Source of the DNA: Escherichia coli
GTDB lineage: Bacteria; Pseudomonadota; Gammaproteobacteria; Enterobacterales; Enterobacteriaceae
NCBI RefSeq assembly: GCF_024502345.1
Contig: NZ_JALDNN010000001.1
Direction: 5' to 3' (one strand)
DNA: 64,000 bases
Position numbers and translations under genes: made by a program. Shown here in pieces: positions 1,211 through 33,537 of this stretch (its first letter is position 1; every line of letters starts with the position of its first letter). The notes below the pieces were generated by a model. It saw nothing but the letters and a program-made list of their open reading frames with translations, was not told where the DNA came from and did not search any database.

Positions 1211-3451
1211 ATGAACAAGAAGATTCATTCCCTGGCCTTGTTGGTCAATCTGGGGATTTATGGGGTAGCGCAGGCACAAGAGCCGACCGATACTCCTGTT
1301 TCACATGACGATACTATTGTCGTTACCGCCGCCGAGCAGAACTTACAGGCGCCTGGCGTTTCGACCATCACCGCAGATGAAATCCGCAAAAACCCCGTTG
1401 CCCGCGATGTGTCGGAGATCATCCGTACCATGCCAGGCGTTAACCTGACCGGTAACTCCACCAGTGGTCAGCGTGGGAATAACCGACAGATTGATATTCG
1501 CGGTATGGGTCCGGAAAACACGCTGATTTTGATTGACGGCAAGCCGGTAAGCAGCCGTAACTCGGTGCGTCAGGGCTGGCGTGGCGAGCGCGATACCCGT
1601 GGTGATACCTCCTGGGTGCCACCTGAAATGATTGAACGTATTGAAGTTCTGCGTGGTCCGGCAGCTGCGCGTTATGGCAACGGCGCGGCGGGCGGCGTGG
1701 TTAACATCATTACCAAAAAAGGCAGCGGCGAGTGGCACGGCTCCTGGGACGCATATTTCAATGCGCCAGAACATAAAGAGGAAGGTGCCACCAAACGCAC
1801 TAACTTTAGCCTGACCGGTCCGCTGGGCGACGAATTCAGCTTCCGCTTGTATGGCAACCTCGACAAAACCCAGGCTGACGCGTGGGATATCAACCAGGGT
1901 CATCAGTCCGCGCGTGCCGGAACGTATGCCACGACGTTACCAGCCGGGCGCGAAGGGGTGATCAACAAAGATATTAATGGCGTGGTGCGCTGGGACTTCG
2001 CACCATTGCAATCGCTGGAACTGGAAGCGGGTTACAGCCGCCAGGGTAACCTGTATGCGGGCGATACCCAGAACACCAACTCTGACGCTTACACTCGCTC
2101 GAAATATGGCGATGAAACCAACCGTCTGTATCGCCAGAACTACTCGCTGACCTGGAACGGCGGCTGGGATAACGGCGTGACCACCAGCAACTGGGTGCAG
2201 TACGAACACACCCGTAACTCGCGTATTCCGGAAGGTCTGGCGGGCGGTACCGAAGGGAAATTTAACGAAAAAGCGACACAGGATTTCGTCGATATCGATC
2301 TTGATGACGTGATGCTGCACAGCGAAGTTAACCTGCCGATTGATTTCCTCGTTAACCAAACGCTGACGCTGGGTACGGAGTGGAATCAGCAACGGATGAA
2401 GGACTTAAGTTCCAACACCCAGGCACTGACCGGAACGAATACCGGTGGCGCTATTGATGGCGTGAGTGCCACCGATCGTAGCCCGTATTCAAAAGCAGAA
2501 ATTTTCTCGCTGTTTGCCGAAAACAACATGGAGCTGACTGACAGCACCATCGTAACGCCGGGGCTGCGTTTCGATCATCACAGTATTGTCGGCAATAACT
2601 GGAGCCCGGCGCTGAACATATCGCAAGGTTTAGGCGATGACTTCACGCTCAAAATGGGCATTGCCCGTGCTTATAAAGCGCCGAGCCTGTACCAGACTAA
2701 CCCTAACTATATCCTCTATAGTAAAGGCCAGGGCTGCTATGCCAGCGCGGGCGGCTGCTATCTGCAAGGTAACGATGACCTGAAAGCAGAAACCAGCATC
2801 AACAAGGAGATTGGTCTGGAGTTCAAACGCGACGGTTGGCTGGCGGGTGTGACCTGGTTCCGCAACGATTATCGCAATAAGATTGAAGCAGGCTATGTTG
2901 CTGTAGGGCAAAACGCAGTCGGCACCGATCTCTATCAGTGGGATAACGTGCCGAAAGCGGTGGTTGAAGGTCTGGAAGGATCGTTAAACGTACCGGTTAG
3001 CGAAACGGTGATGTGGACTAATAACATCACTTATATGCTGAAGAGTGAAAACAAAACCACGGGCGACCGTTTGTCGATCATCCCGGAGTATACGTTGAAC
3101 TCAACGCTGAGCTGGCAGGCACGAGAAGATTTGTCGATGCAAACGACCTTCACCTGGTACGGTAAGCAGCAGCCGAAGAAGTACAACTATAAAGGTCAGC
3201 CAGCGGTTGGACCGGAAACCAAAGAAATTAGTCCTTACAGCATTGTTGGGCTGAGCGCGACGTGGGATGTGACGAAGAATGTCAGTCTGACCGGCGGCGT
3301 GGACAATCTGTTCGACAAACGTTTGTGGCGTGCGGGTAATGCCCAGACCACGGGCGATTTGGCAGGGGCCAACTATATCGCCGGTGCCGGGGCGTATACC
3401 TATAACGAGCCGGGACGTACGTGGTATATGAGCGTAAACACTCACTTCTGA
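1211..3451 (+). CDS. fepA: Ferric enterobactin outer membrane receptor FepA (TonB-dependent)
   Basis: ORF 1151..3451; start set at MNKKIHSLALLVNLGIYGVAQA signal peptide (746 aa); TonB box and C-terminal F typical of TBDT. Confidence 0.95.
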   Translation: MNKKIHSLALLVNLGIYGVAQAQEPTDTPVSHDDTIVVTAAEQNLQAPGVSTITADEIRKNPVARDVSEIIRTMPGVNLTGNSTSGQRGNNRQIDIRGMGPENTLILIDGKPVSSRNSVRQGWRGERDTRGDTSWVPPEMIERIEVLRGPAAARYGNGAAGGVVNIITKKGSGEWHGSWDAYFNAPEHKEEGATKRTNFSLTGPLGDEFSFRLYGNLDKTQADAWDINQGHQSARAGTYATTLPAGREGVINKDINGVVRWDFAPLQSLELEAGYSRQGNLYAGDTQNTNSDAYTRSKYGDETNRLYRQNYSLTWNGGWDNGVTTSNWVQYEHTRNSRIPEGLAGGTEGKFNEKATQDFVDIDLDDVMLHSEVNLPIDFLVNQTLTLGTEWNQQRMKDLSSNTQALTGTNTGGAIDGVSATDRSPYSKAEIFSLFAENNMELTDSTIVTPGLRFDHHSIVGNNWSPALNISQGLGDDFTLKMGIARAYKAPSLYQTNPNYILYSKGQGCYASAGGCYLQGNDDLKAETSINKEIGLEFKRDGWLAGVTWFRNDYRNKIEAGYVAVGQNAVGTDLYQWDNVPKAVVEGLEGSLNVPVSETVMWTNNITYMLKSENKTTGDRLSIIPEYTLNSTLSWQAREDLSMQTTFTWYGKQQPKKYNYKGQPAVGPETKEISPYSIVGLSATWDVTKNVSLTGGVDNLFDKRLWRAGNAQTTGDLAGANYIAGAGAYTYNEPGRTWYMSVNTHF

Positions 3452-3487
3452 TGCTAACGTCAGATTGTTGACAAAGTGCGCGTCGTT

Positions 3488-3590
3488 CATGCCGGATGCG
3501 GCGTGAACGCCTTATCCGGCCTACAAAAATCTTGCCAATTCAATATATTGCAGGACCATGTAGGCCTGATAAGCGTAGCGCATCAGGCAG
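3488..3590. repeat. BIME (pair of inverted REP elements) between fepA and entD
   Basis: gccggatgcggcgtgaacgccttatccggcctac and gtaggcctgataagcgtagcgcatcaggc REP-type palindromes. Confidence 0.8.
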
Positions 3591-3616
3591 TTTTGCGTTT
3601 GTCATCAGTCTCGAAT

Positions 3617-4246
3617 ATGGTCGATATGAAAACTACGCATACCTCCCTCCCCTTTGCCGGACATACGCTGCATTTTGTTGAGTTCGATCCGGCGAATTTT
3701 TGTGAGCAGGATTTACTCTGGCTGCCGCACTACGCACAACTGCAACACGCTGGACGTAAACGTAAAACAGAGCATTTAGCCGGACGGATCGCTGCTGTTT
3801 ATGCCTTGCGGGAATATGGCTATAAATGTGTGCCCGCAATCGGCGAGCTACGCCAACCGGTGTGGCCTGCGGAGGTATACGGCAGTATTAGCCACTGCGG
3901 GGCTACGGCATTGGCCGTGGTTTCCCGTCAACCGATTGGCGTTGATATCGAAGAAATTTTTTCTGCGCAAACAGCGACCGAATTGACAGACAACATTATT
4001 ACACCAGCAGAACACGAGCGACTCGCAGACTGCGGTTTAGCCTTTTCTCTGGCGCTGACACTGGCATTTTCCGCCAAAGAGAGCGCATTTAAGGCAAGTG
4101 AGATCCAAACTGATGCAGGTTTTCTGGACTATCAGATAATTAGCTGGAATAAACAGCAGGTCATCATTCATCGTGAGAATGAGATGTTTGCTGTGCACTG
4201 GCAGATAAAAGAAAAAATAGTCATAACTCTGTGCCAACACGATTAA
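3617..4246 (+). CDS. entD: Enterobactin synthase phosphopantetheinyl transferase EntD
   Basis: ORF 3476..4246; MVDMKTTHTSLPFAGHTLHFVEF... ; upstream part of the ORF is REP sequence so start placed at 3617 (alternative 3626). Confidence 0.9.
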   Translation: MVDMKTTHTSLPFAGHTLHFVEFDPANFCEQDLLWLPHYAQLQHAGRKRKTEHLAGRIAAVYALREYGYKCVPAIGELRQPVWPAEVYGSISHCGATALAVVSRQPIGVDIEEIFSAQTATELTDNIITPAEHERLADCGLAFSLALTLAFSAKESAFKASEIQTDAGFLDYQIISWNKQQVIIHRENEMFAVHWQIKEKIVITLCQHD

Positions 4247-4260
4247 TTGACAACATCTGG

Positions 4261-4770
4261 TACGATTCGCCCGCAGCCATCACTGACTGCGGGCGAAAGT
4301 GTAAAGCAGGTGCCTTACCACTCTGACCTGACAACCGGATATGCGGGGATTGCTCCCCGCACAACGGCTACTTCTTCGGTTCGTAAGCGAGAACAGCCTT
4401 AAACTCAATATTACGTTCCTTTACGGTGAACTCACACAGCGAGTCTCCGACCAGAAGCGTAAATCCCAGCACCGTCAAACACAGCACTATGACTGCCACA
4501 AGGGCATATTTCGTCAGCATGTTTATATTGCCTCCATGCGAAGAAGGGACTACCATCCGAGTTGTTCAGGTTCGGAGTGGCAGCCCCAGGATTGATAGAA
4601 ATATCTCCTGGGGCTTCATCTTTCCAAACCTCAGAGTTAACCTGAAACCGGAAAGCTTCAGGCACCCGCCGTTATCTTACCCTTCCTTAGCAAAATAGCT
4701 GTTTATTTATACAGTGAATCCTGTTTCGGACTTCTGTCGGCAAAACTCATCATTGCTCTTAAAACGAAAC
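4261..4770 (-). other. Intact hok/sok-type type I toxin-antitoxin locus (copy A), tandem to the IS186-split copy
   Basis: ~510-bp unit with near-identical direct repeat starting again at 4772; contains hok ORF, overlapping upstream mok-like frame, and 3' region. Confidence 0.7.
4368..4520 (-). CDS. Hok-family membrane toxin (50 aa), copy A
   Basis: [50 protein letters not shown] within ORF 4368..4556. Confidence 0.85.
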
Positions 4771-4859
4771 CGCCCGCAGCCATCACTGACCGCGGGCGAA
4801 AGTGTAAAGCAGGTGCCTTACCATCCTGACCTGACAACCGGATATGCGGGGATTACTCC

Positions 4860-6198
4860 CATAAGCGCTAACTTAAGGGTTGAACCATCTGAAGAATGCG
4901 ACGCCTCGGTGCCTCGTTAAGACGATGCCTCGCGTTCTTCAATTGCGTTTTGTAGGCTGTCAGGGATACTGTCCCACGAATGGCCACCTGTAAGCTCCAG
5001 ATGACCATTTTTGTTATTCTCCACAACGAGTTAGTTCTTCTTTTCGGATCCGGCACTTCTGGGGGGGAAATCCAGCGATGGCTGGATTATGTCGTCAATT
5101 AAAAATGCGGCGAGTAGATTAGCAAATATCCACGCTTTCGCGAGTTCAGGTTCCTTTGCACGCAAAGCATCCAGGTGCAGCAAACTTTTGAGCCGCTTAA
5201 AAGCCAGTTCAATTTGCCATCGCAGACGGTAACAATCAGCCACTTGCTCTGCTGAATATTCATCTTCCGGTAATGATGTTAGCAATAGCACATGGCCCGC
5301 TGCTTCCAGCGTTTCCGCCTGAACTACTCGTCCTTTTCGACGATTCTCGCTGAGCAGTCGGGTTTTACTGATTAATGCTTTTTCGGGAGGAAGTGATACG
5401 GCAATGAGACGTGCCGGAAAGGGAGCTCCGGCTTTTTTATTACCTGAATTGCCTATCATTACAGTGGTTTCACCGTTCTTACCGCAATCCAGCCCGCGCA
5501 GAAAACCCATCATGTCAAAGCGCATTCCTTCTGCAGTTAACCAGCGCAATCCTCGCCAGTGAACCCGGACGATATAATCAGCTTCTCCAAAAGCAAGTGA
5601 GCGGATACATTCGGGACGCGAACCGAATCCCCGGTCAGCAATGCGTATCTCGTCTGCCGTTTGCGCAAATCGGTCCAGCCGTTCAGCGTCTCTGCTGTCG
5701 GTTAGCTCAAAATCAGTGAACTGACAGGTATGAGGATCATATCCCATATGTAGTCGCCATTCAGCGCTGCCGCCCCCGGGCGCACTGATTGCTGTTCCAT
5801 CGACAAGACGCAATCTCTTTCCGCTTGTACAACCCGTAACTGCGGCGCGCACAGCAAGTGTTTGTGCGGCAAGTATGCCAAACCAGTCGGCGGCATTCCG
5901 CAGCCGCTTCAGGAGAGCCACGTCAGATAATGTTGCAACGTCATGGAGCTGAGCCCATGCAGTGACTTCACGTAATGACATCCCCCCGGGGCCGTAAGCC
6001 AGCCCCAGACGTAGCAGAGTTGCAGCATCACGAATTTCGCGGCGGCGGGTTAGAGCCCCGGCATTACGTGCCGAAGTATCCAGTTCTTCGGGCTTACCAA
6101 TATGGGCCAGAATTGCTGACCAGTTATCGTGAGAGTAATTCATCGGCACGTTAAATCATATCAGGCGTAATACCACAACCCTTAAGTTAGCGCTTATG
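4860..6198 (-). mobile_element. IS186 insertion sequence
   Basis: Ends cataagcgctaacttaagggttg... and inverted copy at 6176-6198; 10-bp target duplication ggattactcc at 4850-4859 and 6199-6208; target reconstructs to GGGGATTACTCCCC (G4-N6-C4). Confidence 0.9.
5031..6143 (-). CDS. insL: IS186 transposase InsL
   Basis: ORF 5031..6149, MNYSHDNWSAILAHIGKPEELDTSARNAG... (IS4-family DDE transposase). Confidence 0.9.
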   Translation of the reverse strand: MNYSHDNWSAILAHIGKPEELDTSARNAGALTRRREIRDAATLLRLGLAYGPGGMSLREVTAWAQLHDVATLSDVALLKRLRNAADWFGILAAQTLAVRAAVTGCTSGKRLRLVDGTAISAPGGGSAEWRLHMGYDPHTCQFTDFELTDSRDAERLDRFAQTADEIRIADRGFGSRPECIRSLAFGEADYIVRVHWRGLRWLTAEGMRFDMMGFLRGLDCGKNGETTVMIGNSGNKKAGAPFPARLIAVSLPPEKALISKTRLLSENRRKGRVVQAETLEAAGHVLLLTSLPEDEYSAEQVADCYRLRWQIELAFKRLKSLLHLDALRAKEPELAKAWIFANLLAAFLIDDIIQPSLDFPPRSAGSEKKN

Positions 6199-28070: not shown

Positions 28071-28114
28071 AGAGCAAAGCGGAACGGATAAGACGGGGTT
28101 AAATGAAGAAGAAA

Positions 28115-28159
28115 TGGCGCGCCCTGCAGGATTCGAACCTGCGGCCCACGACTTAGAAG
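28115..28159 (-). repeat. Prophage att repeat: 45-bp copy of the 3' end of tRNA-Arg (argU)
   Basis: tggcgcgccctgcaggattcgaacctgcggcccacgacttagaag is identical to the 3' 45 nt of the complete tRNA at 36672-36748. Confidence 0.85.
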
Positions 28160-28581
28160 TTCCTAGAACGACATTTTAAGTCAACAAATTACCGCGCCAT
28201 CTCTGCGCTCATACGTCCCACTACCTCAAAACATGTAAAGCCTTGCAAGCCATTGTGAGGCCTTATGTGTCTCAGTTTTGTCCCTCTTTTTTGTACTAAA
28301 AAACATAGCAATTGAGGATAAACCTCATGCTATTTTCGCTTATATGCCTTTAAAGGCATGGCGCTTAAATAGATAAAAACACCACAAAATCATAAAAAAC
28401 CACACAGTAAAACCGCAACATAAAACAATAACAGATAATTAAACCAAAAACAGATAGCGCATTGTGATAATCATTCAATACTAAACAAAATATAAACAGT
28501 GGAGCAATATGTGATTGACTCATTAAGTTAGATATAAAAAATACATATTCAATCATTAAAACGATTGAATGGAGAACTTTT

Positions 28582-28832
28582 ATGCGGGCGAAACTTCTGG
28601 GAATAGTTCTGACAACCCCTATTGCGATCAGCTCTTTTGCTTCTACCGAGACTATATCGTTTACTCCTGACAACATAAATGCGGACATTAGTCTTGGAAC
28701 TCTGAGCGGAAAAACAAAAGAGCGCGTTTATCTAGCTGAAGAAGGAGGCCGAAAAGTCAGTCAACTCGACTGGAAATTCAATAACGCTGCAATTATTAAA
28801 GGTGCAATTAATTGGGATTTGATGCCCCAGAT
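28582..28832 (+). pseudogene. ompT: ompT 5' fragment (outer membrane protease VII), truncated after ~83 codons by IS903-like element
   Basis: MRAKLLGIVLTTPIAISSFASTETISFTPDNINADISLGTLSGKTKERVYLAEEGGRKVSQLDWKFNNAAIIKGAINWDLMPQ then IS inverted repeat at 28833. Confidence 0.85.
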
Positions 28833-29889
28833 GGCTTTGTTGAATAAATCGAACTTTTGCTGAGTTGAAGGATCAGATCACGTATCTTCCCGACAACGCA
28901 GACCGTTCCGTGGCAAAGCAAAAGTTCAAAATCACCAACTGGCCCACCTACAATAAAGCCCTCATCAACCGTGGCTCCATAACTTTCTGGCTGGATGATG
29001 AAGCTATTCAGGCCTGGTATGAGTCAGCAACACCTTCTTCACGAGGCAGACCTCAGCGCTATTCTGACCTTGCCATCACGACTGTGCTGGTCATTAAACG
29101 CGTATTCAGGCTGACCCTGCGCGCTGCGCAGGGCTTTATTGATTCCATTTTTTCTCTGATGAACGTTCCGCTACGCTGCCCGGATTACAGCTGTGTCAGC
29201 AGGCGGGCAAAGTCGGTTAATGTCAGTTTCAAAACGCCCACCCGGGGTGAAATCGCACACCTGGTAATTGATTCCACCGGGCTGAAGGTCTTCGGTGAAG
29301 GCGAGTGGAAAGTCAAAAAGCATGGCCAGGAACGCCGCCGTATCTGGCGTAAGCTGCATCTCGCCGTTGACAGTAAAACACATGAAATCATCTGCGCTGA
29401 CCTGTCGCTGAACAACGTTACGGACTCAGAGGCCTTCCCCGGGTTAATCCGGCAAACCCACCGGAAAATCAGGTCAGCCGCCGCCGATGGCGCTTACGAT
29501 ACCCGGCTATGTCACGATGAACTGCGGCGTAAGAAAATCAGCGCGCTTATCCCTCCCCGAAAAGGTGCGGGTTACTGGCCCGGTGAATATGCAGACCGTA
29601 ACCGTGCAGTGGCTAATCAGCGAATGACCGGGAGTAATGCGCGGTGGAAATGGACAACAGATTACAACCGTCGCTCGATAGCGGAAACGGCGATGTACCG
29701 GGTAAAACAGCTGTTCGGGGGTTCACTGACACTGCGTGACTACGATGGTCAGGTTGCAGAGGCTATGGCCCTGGTACGAGCGCTGAACAAAATGACGAAA
29801 GCAGGTATGCCTGAAAGCGTGCGTATTGCCTGAAAACACAACCCGCTACGGGGGAGACTTACCCGAAATCTGATTTATTCAACAAAGCC
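28833..29889 (+). mobile_element. IS903-like insertion sequence (IS5 family), copy 1, no target-site duplication
   Basis: 1057 bp; terminal inverted repeats ggctttgttgaataaatcg / cgatttattcaacaaagcc; flanks gccccagat vs tcgctgaaa differ. Confidence 0.85.
28865..29833 (+). CDS. IS903-family transposase
   Basis: 322-aa ORF ...[39 protein letters not shown]...; identical to the copy at 56939..57907. Confidence 0.85.
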
Positions 29890-30078
29890 TCGCTGAAAGT
29901 GGAATGTATCCATGGAGAACACTTTATCAGCCGGGAAATAATGCGGGCAACGGTGTTTAATTATATCGAATGTGATTACAATCGGTGGCGGCGGCACAGT
30001 TGGTGTGGCGGCCTCAGTCCGGAACAATTTGAAAACCAGAACCTCGCTTAGGCCTGTGTCCATATTACGTGGGTAGGA
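29890..30078 (+). mobile_element. IS3 right-end remnant (3' end of orfB plus terminal inverted repeat)
   Basis: Encodes [53 protein letters not shown]; ends ...cctgtgtccatattacgtgggtaggatca. Confidence 0.75.
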
Positions 30079-30331
30079 TCACACCTTCTTCCACACTTTC
30101 TGGAACATTTAGGTAACAACCATCTGGATATTGGTGTTGGAACTGGGTTTTACCTTACTCACGTACCTGAGAGTAGTCTGATATCTTTAATGGATTTGAA
30201 CGAAGCTAGCCTGAACGCGGCATCTACAAGGGCTGGGGAATCAAAAATTAAACATAAAATTAACCATTGATGTAGCCCCCTGAAACACCGGACAGTAGCT
30301 GTATCTCCAGATAAGAGATAGGCTTGAATAT

Positions 30332-30727
30332 ATGTCTAACACTAACGCCAATTTTGAGATGACCGGGATCCTGTTAGGGCAAGAAGTCCGTAAACGTAAA
30401 ACTCCTCAGGAGAAGATCGCCATTATCCAGCAGACGATGGAGCCGGGTATGAATGTCTCCCATGTCGCCCGCCTGCATGGTATCCAGCCCAGCCTGCTGT
30501 TTAAGTGGAAGAAGCAATATCAGGAAGGCAGCCTCACCGCCGTTGCGGCTGGAGAGGAAGTCGTTCCTGCTTCTGAGCTTACTGCTGCTCTGAAGCAGGT
30601 CCGGGAGCTTCAGCGCCTTCTGGGCAAGAAAACGATGGAAGTTGAGATCCTGAAAGAAGCCGTGGAGTACGGTCAGTCGCGAAAATGGATAGCGCACGCG
30701 CCCTTGTTGCCAAAGGACGGGGAATAG
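30332..30727 (+). CDS. IS3-family transposase OrfA (HTH)
   Basis: 131 aa, ...[60 protein letters not shown]... similar to IS2 InsC. Confidence 0.8.
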
Positions 30728-31566
30728 CCATGGTCAGCCGGACCATGGGCGTGTCGCGTGCGCAACTGTCACTGCGGATTAACCGTTCTGCCGACTGGCA
30801 GGACAGGCGCTGTAACCGGCGTAATGAAGAAGCAGACGCAGAAATACTGTCGGCTATCCTCAACATTATCAGCGATATGCCGAGTTATGGTTATCGACGC
30901 GTGTGGGGCATCCTGCGCAAGCAACGTCGCACAGAGGGACAGCCACCTGTGAATGCCAAACGGCTTTACAGGATAATGAGCGAGCATAACCTGTTGTTGT
31001 TGCATCACAAACCAGAGCGACCGAAGCGTGAACATAAGGGCAAGATAGCGGTGGCAGAAAGCGATATGCGCTGGTGTTCAGATGGCTTCGAGTTCGGCTG
31101 CGACAACGGCGAAAAACTGCGGGTAACGTTCGCGCTGGACTGCTGCGACCGTGAGGCCATAGACTGGGCAGCAAGCACGGGAGGCTATGACAGTTCGACC
31201 GTGCAGGATGTGATGCTGAGGTCGGTGGAAAAGCGCTTCGGCGACAGGTTGCCCGACACAGCGGTGCAGTGGCTGACGGATAACGGTTCAGCGTATACCG
31301 CGTATGAAACGCGGAGGTTCGCGAGAGAGCTGAATCTGGAGCCCTGCACAACAGCGGTGAGCAGCCCGCAGAGTAATGGCATGGCCGAACGGTTCGTGAA
31401 AACGATGAAAGAAGACTATATCGCGTTCATGCCAAAACCGGATGTGAGAACAGCACTGCGAAACCTTGCAGTAGCGTTCACGCATTACAATGAAAACCAC
31501 CCGCACAGCGCGCTGGGATATCACTCCCCGAGGGAATACCGGCGGCAGCGGACATCGTTAACTTAA
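30685..31566 (+). CDS. IS3-family transposase OrfB (DDE catalytic domain)
   Basis: 293 aa overlapping orfA in another frame; ...[17 protein letters not shown]... Confidence 0.8.
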
Positions 31567-31615
31567 GATACAAAAGCTGTTCGGAGATGGAGGGTCAAGA
31601 TCACATAAAATTAAC

Positions 31616-31972
31616 CATGATGTTTTTGAACCTTATCCCGCGGCGTTACATGGTCAATTTGATTCCATTTCCATGTTTTACCTTCTTCACTGCCTGCCTG
31701 GAAATATATCTACAAAAAGCTGTGTAATACGCAATGCGGCGCAGGCCTTAACTGACGATGGAACTCTATACGGAGCCACAATTCTTGGCGATGGAGTTGT
31801 GCACAATAGCTTCGGTCAAAAACTGATGCGCATTTACAATCAGAAAGGCATCTTTTCAAACACAAAAGATTCCGAAGAAGGCTTAACACATATACTCTCA
31901 GAGCATTTCGAGAATGTTAAAACCAAGGTTCAAGGTACTGTAGTAATGTTTTCCGCTTCAGGGAAAAAATAG
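31616..31972 (+). CDS. Hypothetical protein, apparently 5'-truncated gene remnant
   Basis: Open frame begins immediately after the IS2-like flank with no start until 31673; followed by hairpin terminator at ~31980-32017. Confidence 0.3.
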   Translation, partial: HDVFEPYPAALHGQFDSISMFYLLHCLPGNISTKSCVIRNAAQALTDDGTLYGATILGDGVVHNSFGQKLMRIYNQKGIFSNTKDSEEGLTHILSEHFENVKTKVQGTVVMFSASGKK

Positions 31973-32281
31973 CATCCAACCGCAGCACGTTCTTGCATAA
32001 GGCGTGTCTGCGGTTTTTCAACTATTCAGATACATCACTCCCATCACATTCATTCCTCCGCATCATAGGCATATAGGCTATATCACCTTGATATTTTTCT
32101 TCTTCAGATAAAAACTGTTATCTATGTATACTTTTAAACCCAATCCGTGTAGAGTCTCTGCATAAGATAGTTTGCAGTTGCCACTTCAGCTTGCGCCATA
32201 AACCGCCTGATTTTTGCCGCCACCTGGGTGATGCTGCCAACTTACTGATTTAGTGTATGATGGTGTTTTTGAGGTGCTCCA

Positions 32282-32557
32282 GTGGCTTCTGTTTCTATCA
32301 GCTGTCCCTCCTGTTCAGCTACTGACGGGGTGGTGCGTAACGGCAAAAGCACCGCCGGACATCAGCGCTATCTCTGCTCTCACTGCCGTAAAACATGGCA
32401 ACTGCAGTTCACTTACACCGCTTCTCAACCCGGTACGCACCAGAAAATCATTGATATGGCCATGAATGGCGTTGGATGCCGGGCAACCGCCCGCATTATG
32501 GGCGTTGGCCTCAACACGATTTTCCGCCATTTAAAAAACTCAGGCCGCAGTCGGTAA
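32282..32557 (+). CDS. insA: IS1 InsA
   Basis: 91 aa [43 protein letters not shown]... Confidence 0.9.
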
Positions 32558-32979
32558 CCTCGCGCATACAGCCGGGCAGTGACGTCATCGTCTGCGCGGA
32601 AATGGACGAACAGTGGGGATACGTCGGGGCTAAATCGCGCCAGCGCTGGCTGTTTTACGCGTATGACAGGCTCCGGAAGACGGTTGTTGCGCACGTATTC
32701 GGTGAACGCACTATGGCGACGCTGGGGCGTCTTATGAGCCTGCTGTCACCCTTTGACGTGGTGATATGGATGACGGATGGCTGGCCGCTGTATGAATCCC
32801 GCCTGAAGGGAAAGCTGCACGTAATCAGCAAGCGATATACGCAGCGAATTGAGCGGCATAACCTGAATCTGAGGCAGCACCTGGCACGGCTGGGACGGAA
32901 GTCGCTGTCGTTCTCAAAATCGGTGGAGCTGCATGACAAAGTCATCGGGCATTATCTGAACATAAAACACTATCAATAA
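32476..32979 (+). CDS. insB: IS1 InsB (expressed as InsAB' by frameshift)
   Basis: 167-aa ORF in -1 frame relative to insA. Confidence 0.85.
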
Positions 32980-33439
32980 GTTGGAGTCATTACCTAAGTC
33001 AGGTATAAATATAAGTGACATTGCCCAAGAATTCAAAACCTCGCGGCAAACCATTTTAAGAGCTAAAGCAAAAAATCAGACACCTGATATATAAAAATAA
33101 TCTCGGTGTGAGATTCCTTACGTTTTCCAAGCCCCCCTTCCTAGCCTTAAATGGAAAGATACTTCTAATTATAGAATTTATATATCTTACCCTACGGTAG
33201 GGCTGGCCATTCAATATCCGGTGCAGTTGATGTATCAACACGGTTCAGCAACACCCGATACTTTTTCCAGGCTTCCAGCAACAAGGTTTCTTCCTCCGTT
33301 GCGATCTCCAGATCCACAGCATCCTGAAGCGGCGCTATATGCTCACTGGCTACCTGCATCAGGCTGTTTTTTGTTTCTTCCGCCTACCTGTAATACTGAT
33401 TGCGAGTTGAATGGTTTGATTTGTCATTATCAATTCCTA

Positions 33440-33500
33440 TTGGTATTGCAATGAATGAATAATAGCAATGCGTATTAATCCAAGCAATAGCAAAACGTGT
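33440..33500. promoter_or_regulatory. Putative operator/promoter region upstream of prophage repressor (OR-like)
   Basis: Palindrome attgcaat plus repeated aatagcaa motifs; tataaa -10-like hexamer 10 nt before the repressor ATG. Confidence 0.4.
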
Positions 33501-33537
33501 TTTGACCATCAATACGCAAGCGTATAAATTAAAACTT

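Follow-up and report, generated by a model that had tools for sequence, protein, structure and literature searches.

The segment at positions 31604-32226 of the 64,000-nt Escherichia coli stretch analysed here (the window) is very probably the 3' piece of an inactivated prophage methyltransferase gene. It comprises codons 101-222 of the parent gene, the hairpin that follows them and 207 bp of spacer DNA, and we are confident that the gene is split by an insertion sequence (IS) and that this piece of it is inert. The parent is a member of the ybcY family known from the DLP12 prophage, and the neighbouring IS2-group element separates the fragment from a second piece of this gene. The fragment is thus an ordinary IS-disrupted pseudogene piece of an already catalogued kind.

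The 3' fragment and its parent gene

The initial annotation described an open frame of about 118 codons that begins without a start codon at the flank of an IS2-like element. Translation of 31616-31975 bears this out, with 118 sense codons running from 31616 to a stop codon at 31970-31972. The gene-derived part begins 12 nt further upstream, at 31604, and comprises 122 codons. The frame as such has been open since 31562, directly after a TAA at 31559-31561, and its first 14 codons are IS-derived. No in-frame ATG, GTG or TTG precedes the ATG at 31673, which opens an ORF of 99 aa (31673-31969). The placement of the piece between an IS2-like element and IS1 was also accurate, as the IS2-group element occupies 30268-31603 on its left and IS1 occupies 32227-32994 on its right.

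A megablast search with 31560-32240 matched 4,936 of 5,426 complete E. coli genomes. As reference for the parent gene we used its locus in E. coli O103:H2 12009 (L001). Window positions 31603-32226 correspond to L001 6001-6624 with 100% identity over 624 bp, and the same identity is found in hundreds of E. coli genomes. The parent in L001 is a 669-bp gene of 222 codons annotated as a class I SAM-dependent methyltransferase. The window retains its codons 101-222 and the stop codon (31604-31972, plus strand, 100% identical to L001 6002-6370) plus 254 bp of equally identical downstream DNA. The last part of the latter (32020-32226, plus strand) is native intergenic DNA of the parent locus, which matches L001 without a mismatch up to 6624 and is ended by IS1. 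The proposal that the frame is the C-terminal part of a prophage or accessory gene is therefore borne out: it encodes residues 101-222 of the 222-aa protein WP_000239874.1, which occurs in prophages and temperate phages. Homologues with an N-terminal extension exist, as they should for a gene fragment and should not for a chance open frame.

Profile searches place the 222-aa parent protein among the class I SAM-dependent methyltransferases. It scores above the Pfam cut-offs for Methyltransf_12 (39.2 versus 30), Methyltransf_23, Methyltransf_25 and Methyltransf_11, and the domain covers residues 58-155. Residues 59-65 form motif I, the SAM-binding loop DIGVGTG. This motif is absent from 31604-31969 and is encoded in the second gene piece at 30081-30267. 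On its own, the fragment yields partial methyltransferase matches of 18.5-18.9 bits, which are sub-threshold against Pfam cut-offs of 27-30. Judged by these profiles, the fragment descends from the class I methyltransferase family but is not a complete domain. The closest PDB structures to the parent are UbiG and juvenile-hormone acid methyltransferases, both marginal (E ~ 1e-3), and an NCBIfam search of the parent matched no model. The parent matches PHROG 2132 with E = 2.7e-156, a family listed as function unknown, and the titles and abstracts of literature naming ybcY indicate no functional study.

In L001, the parent gene is flanked by a tail-fibre-assembly pseudogene on one side and by ynaM/ynfT-ydfK-pin on the other, with ompT, envY, ybcH and nfrA nearby. 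The full-length gene is also present in 14 records of temperate E. coli phages. It is an accessory gene near the tail-fibre end of argU-integrated lambdoid phages and belongs to the ybcY family of DLP12. The initial annotation did not recognise the sequence, which this family membership now places; the 99-aa ORF had itself already been deposited publicly as a DLP12 methyltransferase fragment. In location, the window gene agrees with the family, since it lies beside ompT and envY, where a lambdoid prophage integrated at argU has its tail-fibre end. It departs from the family in its reading frame, of which the 5' 128 nt are gone and the remainder is split by an IS.

The best-known relative is ybcY (b0562) of E. 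coli K-12, a DLP12 pseudogene with 98-99% nucleotide identity to the window gene. It sits at the right end of the argU prophage, where its position and orientation with respect to tfa', ompT and envY match those of the window gene, as does its placement relative to tfaX, appY, ompT and envY. Both copies are pseudogenes, but the K-12 copy is uninterrupted and has lost no more than its first 16 nt, start codon included, whereas the window gene lacks 128 nt and carries a 1336-bp IS. Copies of the WP_000239874.1/PHROG 2132 type in E. coli O103:H2 12009 and in the phages ev243, 2G7b, Kati, Turner and the PhiR series are 100% identical to the window across the surviving codons and the hairpin. These copies have 222 intact codons, a start codon and motif I, whereas the window copy has lost its start and is split.

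The IS2-group element and its target duplication

The element to the left of the fragment (30268-31603, plus strand) is a 1336-bp member of the IS2 group of the IS3 family, as judged from profiles and from identical copies elsewhere. It carries the overlapping frames orfA (30332-30727) and orfB (30685-31566), and its ends read TGATGTAGCCCCC... and ...GGGTCAAGATCA (TG...CA). OrfA and OrfB match the Pfam models HTH_Tnp_1, rve and rve_3, and OrfB matches NCBIfam transpos_IS3 (199 versus 160). The IS2 TnpA and TnpB subfamily models match OrfA and OrfB below their cut-offs. Copies identical to it over the full length are present in other E. coli chromosomes and in plasmids, where they are annotated as IS3 family transposase with programmed frameshift.

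The element is bordered by a perfect 15-bp target duplication, CATAAAATTAACCAT, at 30253-30267 and 31604-31618, which corresponds to gene nt 301-315. On its far side lies the middle piece of the same pseudogene (30081-30267, plus strand; gene nt 129-315, codons ~44-105, including motif I), identified by BLAST of the parent locus against the window. The fragment described as an orphan is thus one of two pieces. When 30081-30267 is joined to 31619-31972, the product equals parent nt 129-669 at 541 of 541 positions. By inserting into gene nt 301-315, the IS2-group element, probably ISEcl1, duplicated 15 bp and left the pieces 30081-30267 and 31604-31972. Because the duplication is perfect, gene nt 129-315 lie on the far side and the pieces rejoin without a mismatch, the arrangement is a simple transposition into a continuous gene by an element with both inverted repeats complete.

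The initial annotation had instead attributed the missing 5' end to removal by the adjacent IS. Two features of the locus speak for such a deletion: the start-less frame abuts the IS, and gene nt 1-128 are truly absent from the window. The missing 128 nt end, however, at a separate junction at 30081, and a deletion that left an orphan 3' end would account neither for the intact target duplication nor for the upstream gene piece that adjoins the IS and restores the parent sequence. We therefore regard a deletion by the IS2-group element as ruled out in practice, with only a very small residual probability, and the simple insertion is taken as the cause of the split in what follows.

The name ISEcl1 is probable. 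It derives from the length of the element, its group and its host range, including an abundance on Klebsiella plasmids, and not from sequence comparison; the published length of ISEcl1 is 1336 bp (PMC5001619 Table 2; PMC10425158 Table 8). The name ISEhe3 was also considered and dropped, as one paper places ISEhe3 in the IS51 group. The window element resembles IS2/ISEcl1 in its two overlapping ORFs, its TG...CA ends, its length and its DDE integrase core. It differs in its target duplication: the IS2 group is listed, quoting ISfinder, with 5 bp (PMC10425158 Table 8), and the duplication in the window is three times as long.

We compared the duplication in the window with those at loci L002-L005 and L020-L024. 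Among nine independent sites, the duplication measures 15 bp at six, 16 bp at one and 5 bp at one, and one site has none. Hence, 15-16 bp were duplicated at seven of the nine sites, the window and six others. To our knowledge, target duplications of 3-5 bp are documented for every subgroup of the IS3 family, and 15-16 bp is three times that. A text search of the literature found no description of a 15-bp duplication for the IS3 family or ISEcl1; the ISfinder record may still list such a length. We tentatively suggest that the element consistently duplicates 15-16 bp, which, if undescribed, might mean that this DDE transposase makes its two strand-transfer cuts about 1.5 helical turns apart, unusually far for the IS3 family. 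The 15-bp duplication is the only feature of this locus that may be of interest to transposition specialists.

Coding potential of the fragment and its terminal hairpin

The fragment is almost certainly inert, a reading derived from its sequence: it has no start codon, no Shine-Dalgarno sequence, no promoter-like site and no motif I. A consensus promoter scan of 31400-31700 found no promoter-like site upstream of the fragment, and the 30 nt ahead of the ATG at 31673 contain no AGGAG-like run that could serve as a Shine-Dalgarno sequence. From these features we infer a loss of expression. Both gene pieces show zero substitutions relative to intact alleles, an identity that is best read as reflecting recent IS events and not selection on the fragment; it fits recency and is no proof of functionlessness.

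Two other readings of the open frame have to be weighed against an inert gene remnant. That the frame is a chance opening in non-coding DNA, as its missing start codon might suggest, can be rejected with near certainty, because its sequence recurs with 100% identity in the 3' 366 nt of a conserved gene that has 222 codons and a phage protein family profile. Production of a protein with residual or new function, either from the 99-aa ORF or by read-through from the IS, has slightly more in its favour and is nevertheless very improbable. The 99-codon ORF is intact and has been called as a protein on at least 48 contigs in public annotations, and read-through transcripts are conceivable, with the stop codon of orfB no more than 38 nt upstream. 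The opposing evidence is the lack of a Shine-Dalgarno sequence and of an upstream promoter-like site just described, and the nature of the product, which would have neither motif I nor the first strands, i.e., the N-terminal half, of the Rossmann fold. Moreover, the same ORF arises on many contigs wherever unrelated lesions break the gene, as a by-product of decay would. The inert remnant thus remains the preferred reading, and the proper annotation is part of a split ybcY-family pseudogene and not a hypothetical 99-aa protein.

The frame was also said to end with a hairpin terminator. A strong, G+C-rich hairpin is indeed present directly after the stop codon; the terminator assignment, on the other hand, received no call from a simple consensus terminator scan, which we ascribe to a long interrupted stem and a short U run. 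The native hairpin (31978-32015, plus strand; 31978-32019 with its U run) has a 13-bp stem with one bulge and a 3-bp stem on top and is followed by UUUC. The U tract consists of five consecutive U, two of which are paired in the stem, and then C. The 71-nt stretch folds with -22.3 kcal/mol (z = -3.5), and one of 200 shuffled sequences was as stable. The hairpin is, according to this predicted fold, likely a candidate intrinsic terminator of the parent gene. In K-12, it sits between the convergent genes tfaD and ybcY, and the similarity to K-12 DLP12 stops exactly there. The consensus scan also placed a promoter-like site at 32103-32132, inside the downstream spacer 32020-32226.

Alternatively, the hairpin and the region behind it might encode an sRNA akin to Shigella CssrB on the minus strand, or terminate transcription in both directions. 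The minus strand of 31981-32118 matches the Rfam model RF02799 (CssrB), the 3' end of which falls on the hairpin, and the convergent arrangement in K-12 would suit either role. The match reaches, however, only 28.5 bits against a gathering score of 76 and is essentially the hairpin alone, as 49 unrelated bases stand in for the 87 positions at the centre of the model. In addition, the U run on the minus strand lies ~10 nt past the stem, and IS1 has removed the upstream DNA of that strand. We therefore consider these alternatives unlikely and retain the candidate terminator of the methyltransferase gene. A text search of the literature on CssrB returned nothing relevant.

CssrB is a chromosome-encoded Shigella sRNA. 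The position of this sub-threshold match on the minus strand of the methyltransferase terminator hairpin suggests that CssrB may have been defined in a homologous prophage spacer.

Erosion of the argU-site prophage and its neighbours

The pseudogene lies in a decayed lambdoid prophage of DLP12 type at the argU site (28113-36716), delimited by 47-bp att direct repeats at 28113-28159 and 36670-36716. The prophage measures 8.6 kb, more than one third of which is IS DNA. The gene for tRNA-Arg(tct) follows at 36672-36748, then fimZ. Gene order across the window is nfrB-nfrA-ybcH-envY-ompT' ... cI-like-int'-argU.

The methyltransferase gene actually loses its 5' end at gene nt 128/129, at window position 30081, where it is joined to the 192-bp 3' remnant of an IS3-family element (29890-30081, plus strand). 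This remnant encodes the end of a transposase integrase-core domain (Pfam rve_2). It is preceded by a complete IS903B of the IS5 family (28833-29889, plus strand, 1057 bp), which has no 9-bp target duplication and cuts ompT after codon 83. The 83 remaining ompT codons (28582-28832) lie to the left of IS903B and are preceded by intact envY, ybcH, nfrA, nfrB and cus genes. Compared with L001, positions 2783-5829 are missing. These ~3 kb hold ompT codons 84-317, the gene of an alpha/beta hydrolase, a fragment of tfa and, together with its promoter, the 5' 128 nt of the methyltransferase gene. They are missing where the IS3-family element meets the gene at nt 128/129 and is in turn interrupted by the IS903B next to ompT codon 83. 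Elsewhere, the ompT'/IS903B junction was found in a single draft assembly, GCA_050022275.1, and in a small number of metagenome contigs.

IS903B and the 192-bp IS3-family remnant also occur as a contiguous 1249-bp block, with 97.5% identity, on the E. coli plasmid NZ_CP145709.1. From this sequence match, the junction of IS903B within the IS3-family element may be older than its arrival at the window locus. A second, identical copy of IS903B lies in inverted orientation at 56883-57939 (minus strand) with its 9-bp target duplication, CCATGCCCG, intact and is a simple insertion. An inversion between the two copies was considered as the reason why the first has no duplication and is not supported, because the second has a duplication of its own and the gene order is ancestral.

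In its truncated ompT, the window is reminiscent of Shigella and enteroinvasive E. coli (EIEC), which are ompT-negative. A 'black hole' in these organisms, in which ompT is absent together with DLP12 material, was reportedly described by Nakata et al. in 1993. Common to both cases are an inactive ompT and a prophage at the DLP12 site reduced to IS-riddled remnants. The window differs in that 83 ompT codons remain and that the IS903B junction is the cause.

On the other side of the fragment, IS1 (32227-32994, plus strand, 768 bp) begins 254 bp past the stop codon and has no 9-bp target duplication. It marks a deletion of 1.3 kb and stands in place of L001 6625-7960, where ynaM/ynfT, ydfK and the greater part of a pin-type recombinase gene lie. 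To its right, the window resumes at L001 7961 with the 3' end of pin and a 3' fragment of tfa that extends up to 33388. From 33384, it is collinear with the immunity and early-left region of the argU prophage of strain OkiPb01695 (L025), including a cI-like repressor gene. Since target duplications are absent from the first IS903B and from both copies of IS1, any order proposed for the three IS events would be conjectural.

Further rearrangements are visible in the same region. Relative to OkiPb01695, the early-left arm carries deletions at 36050 (gam-bet-exo, L025 6668-8269) and at 36427, neither with an IS at its junction. At 36427, the lost DNA (L025 8649-10650) comprised a number of small genes and the greater part of the integrase gene. 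A second IS1 at 37666-38433, identical to the first, in the same orientation and also devoid of a target duplication, replaces the entire sfm fimbrial operon (sfmA-F; L025 11895-17807) between fimZ and folD. The Rfam model IS009, an E. coli candidate sRNA, matches over its full length at 33226-33426 (minus strand) and above threshold (177.7 bits versus 117). This match spans the tfa 3' fragment and crosses the boundary at 33388/33389 into the start of a cro-like gene.

The same arrangement of IS/gene junctions is absent from the 5,426 complete E. coli genomes and from the GTDB species representatives. Judged from these comparisons, the allele is a strain-specific combination of junctions and not a new kind of feature. 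The fragment is of little importance in itself, and its surroundings are of modest value. They document a prophage at the DLP12 site that has shrunk to 8.6 kb, with ompT and the sfm operon lost, through four kinds of IS. IS-driven decay of such a kind is seen in host-restricted E. coli and Shigella lineages.
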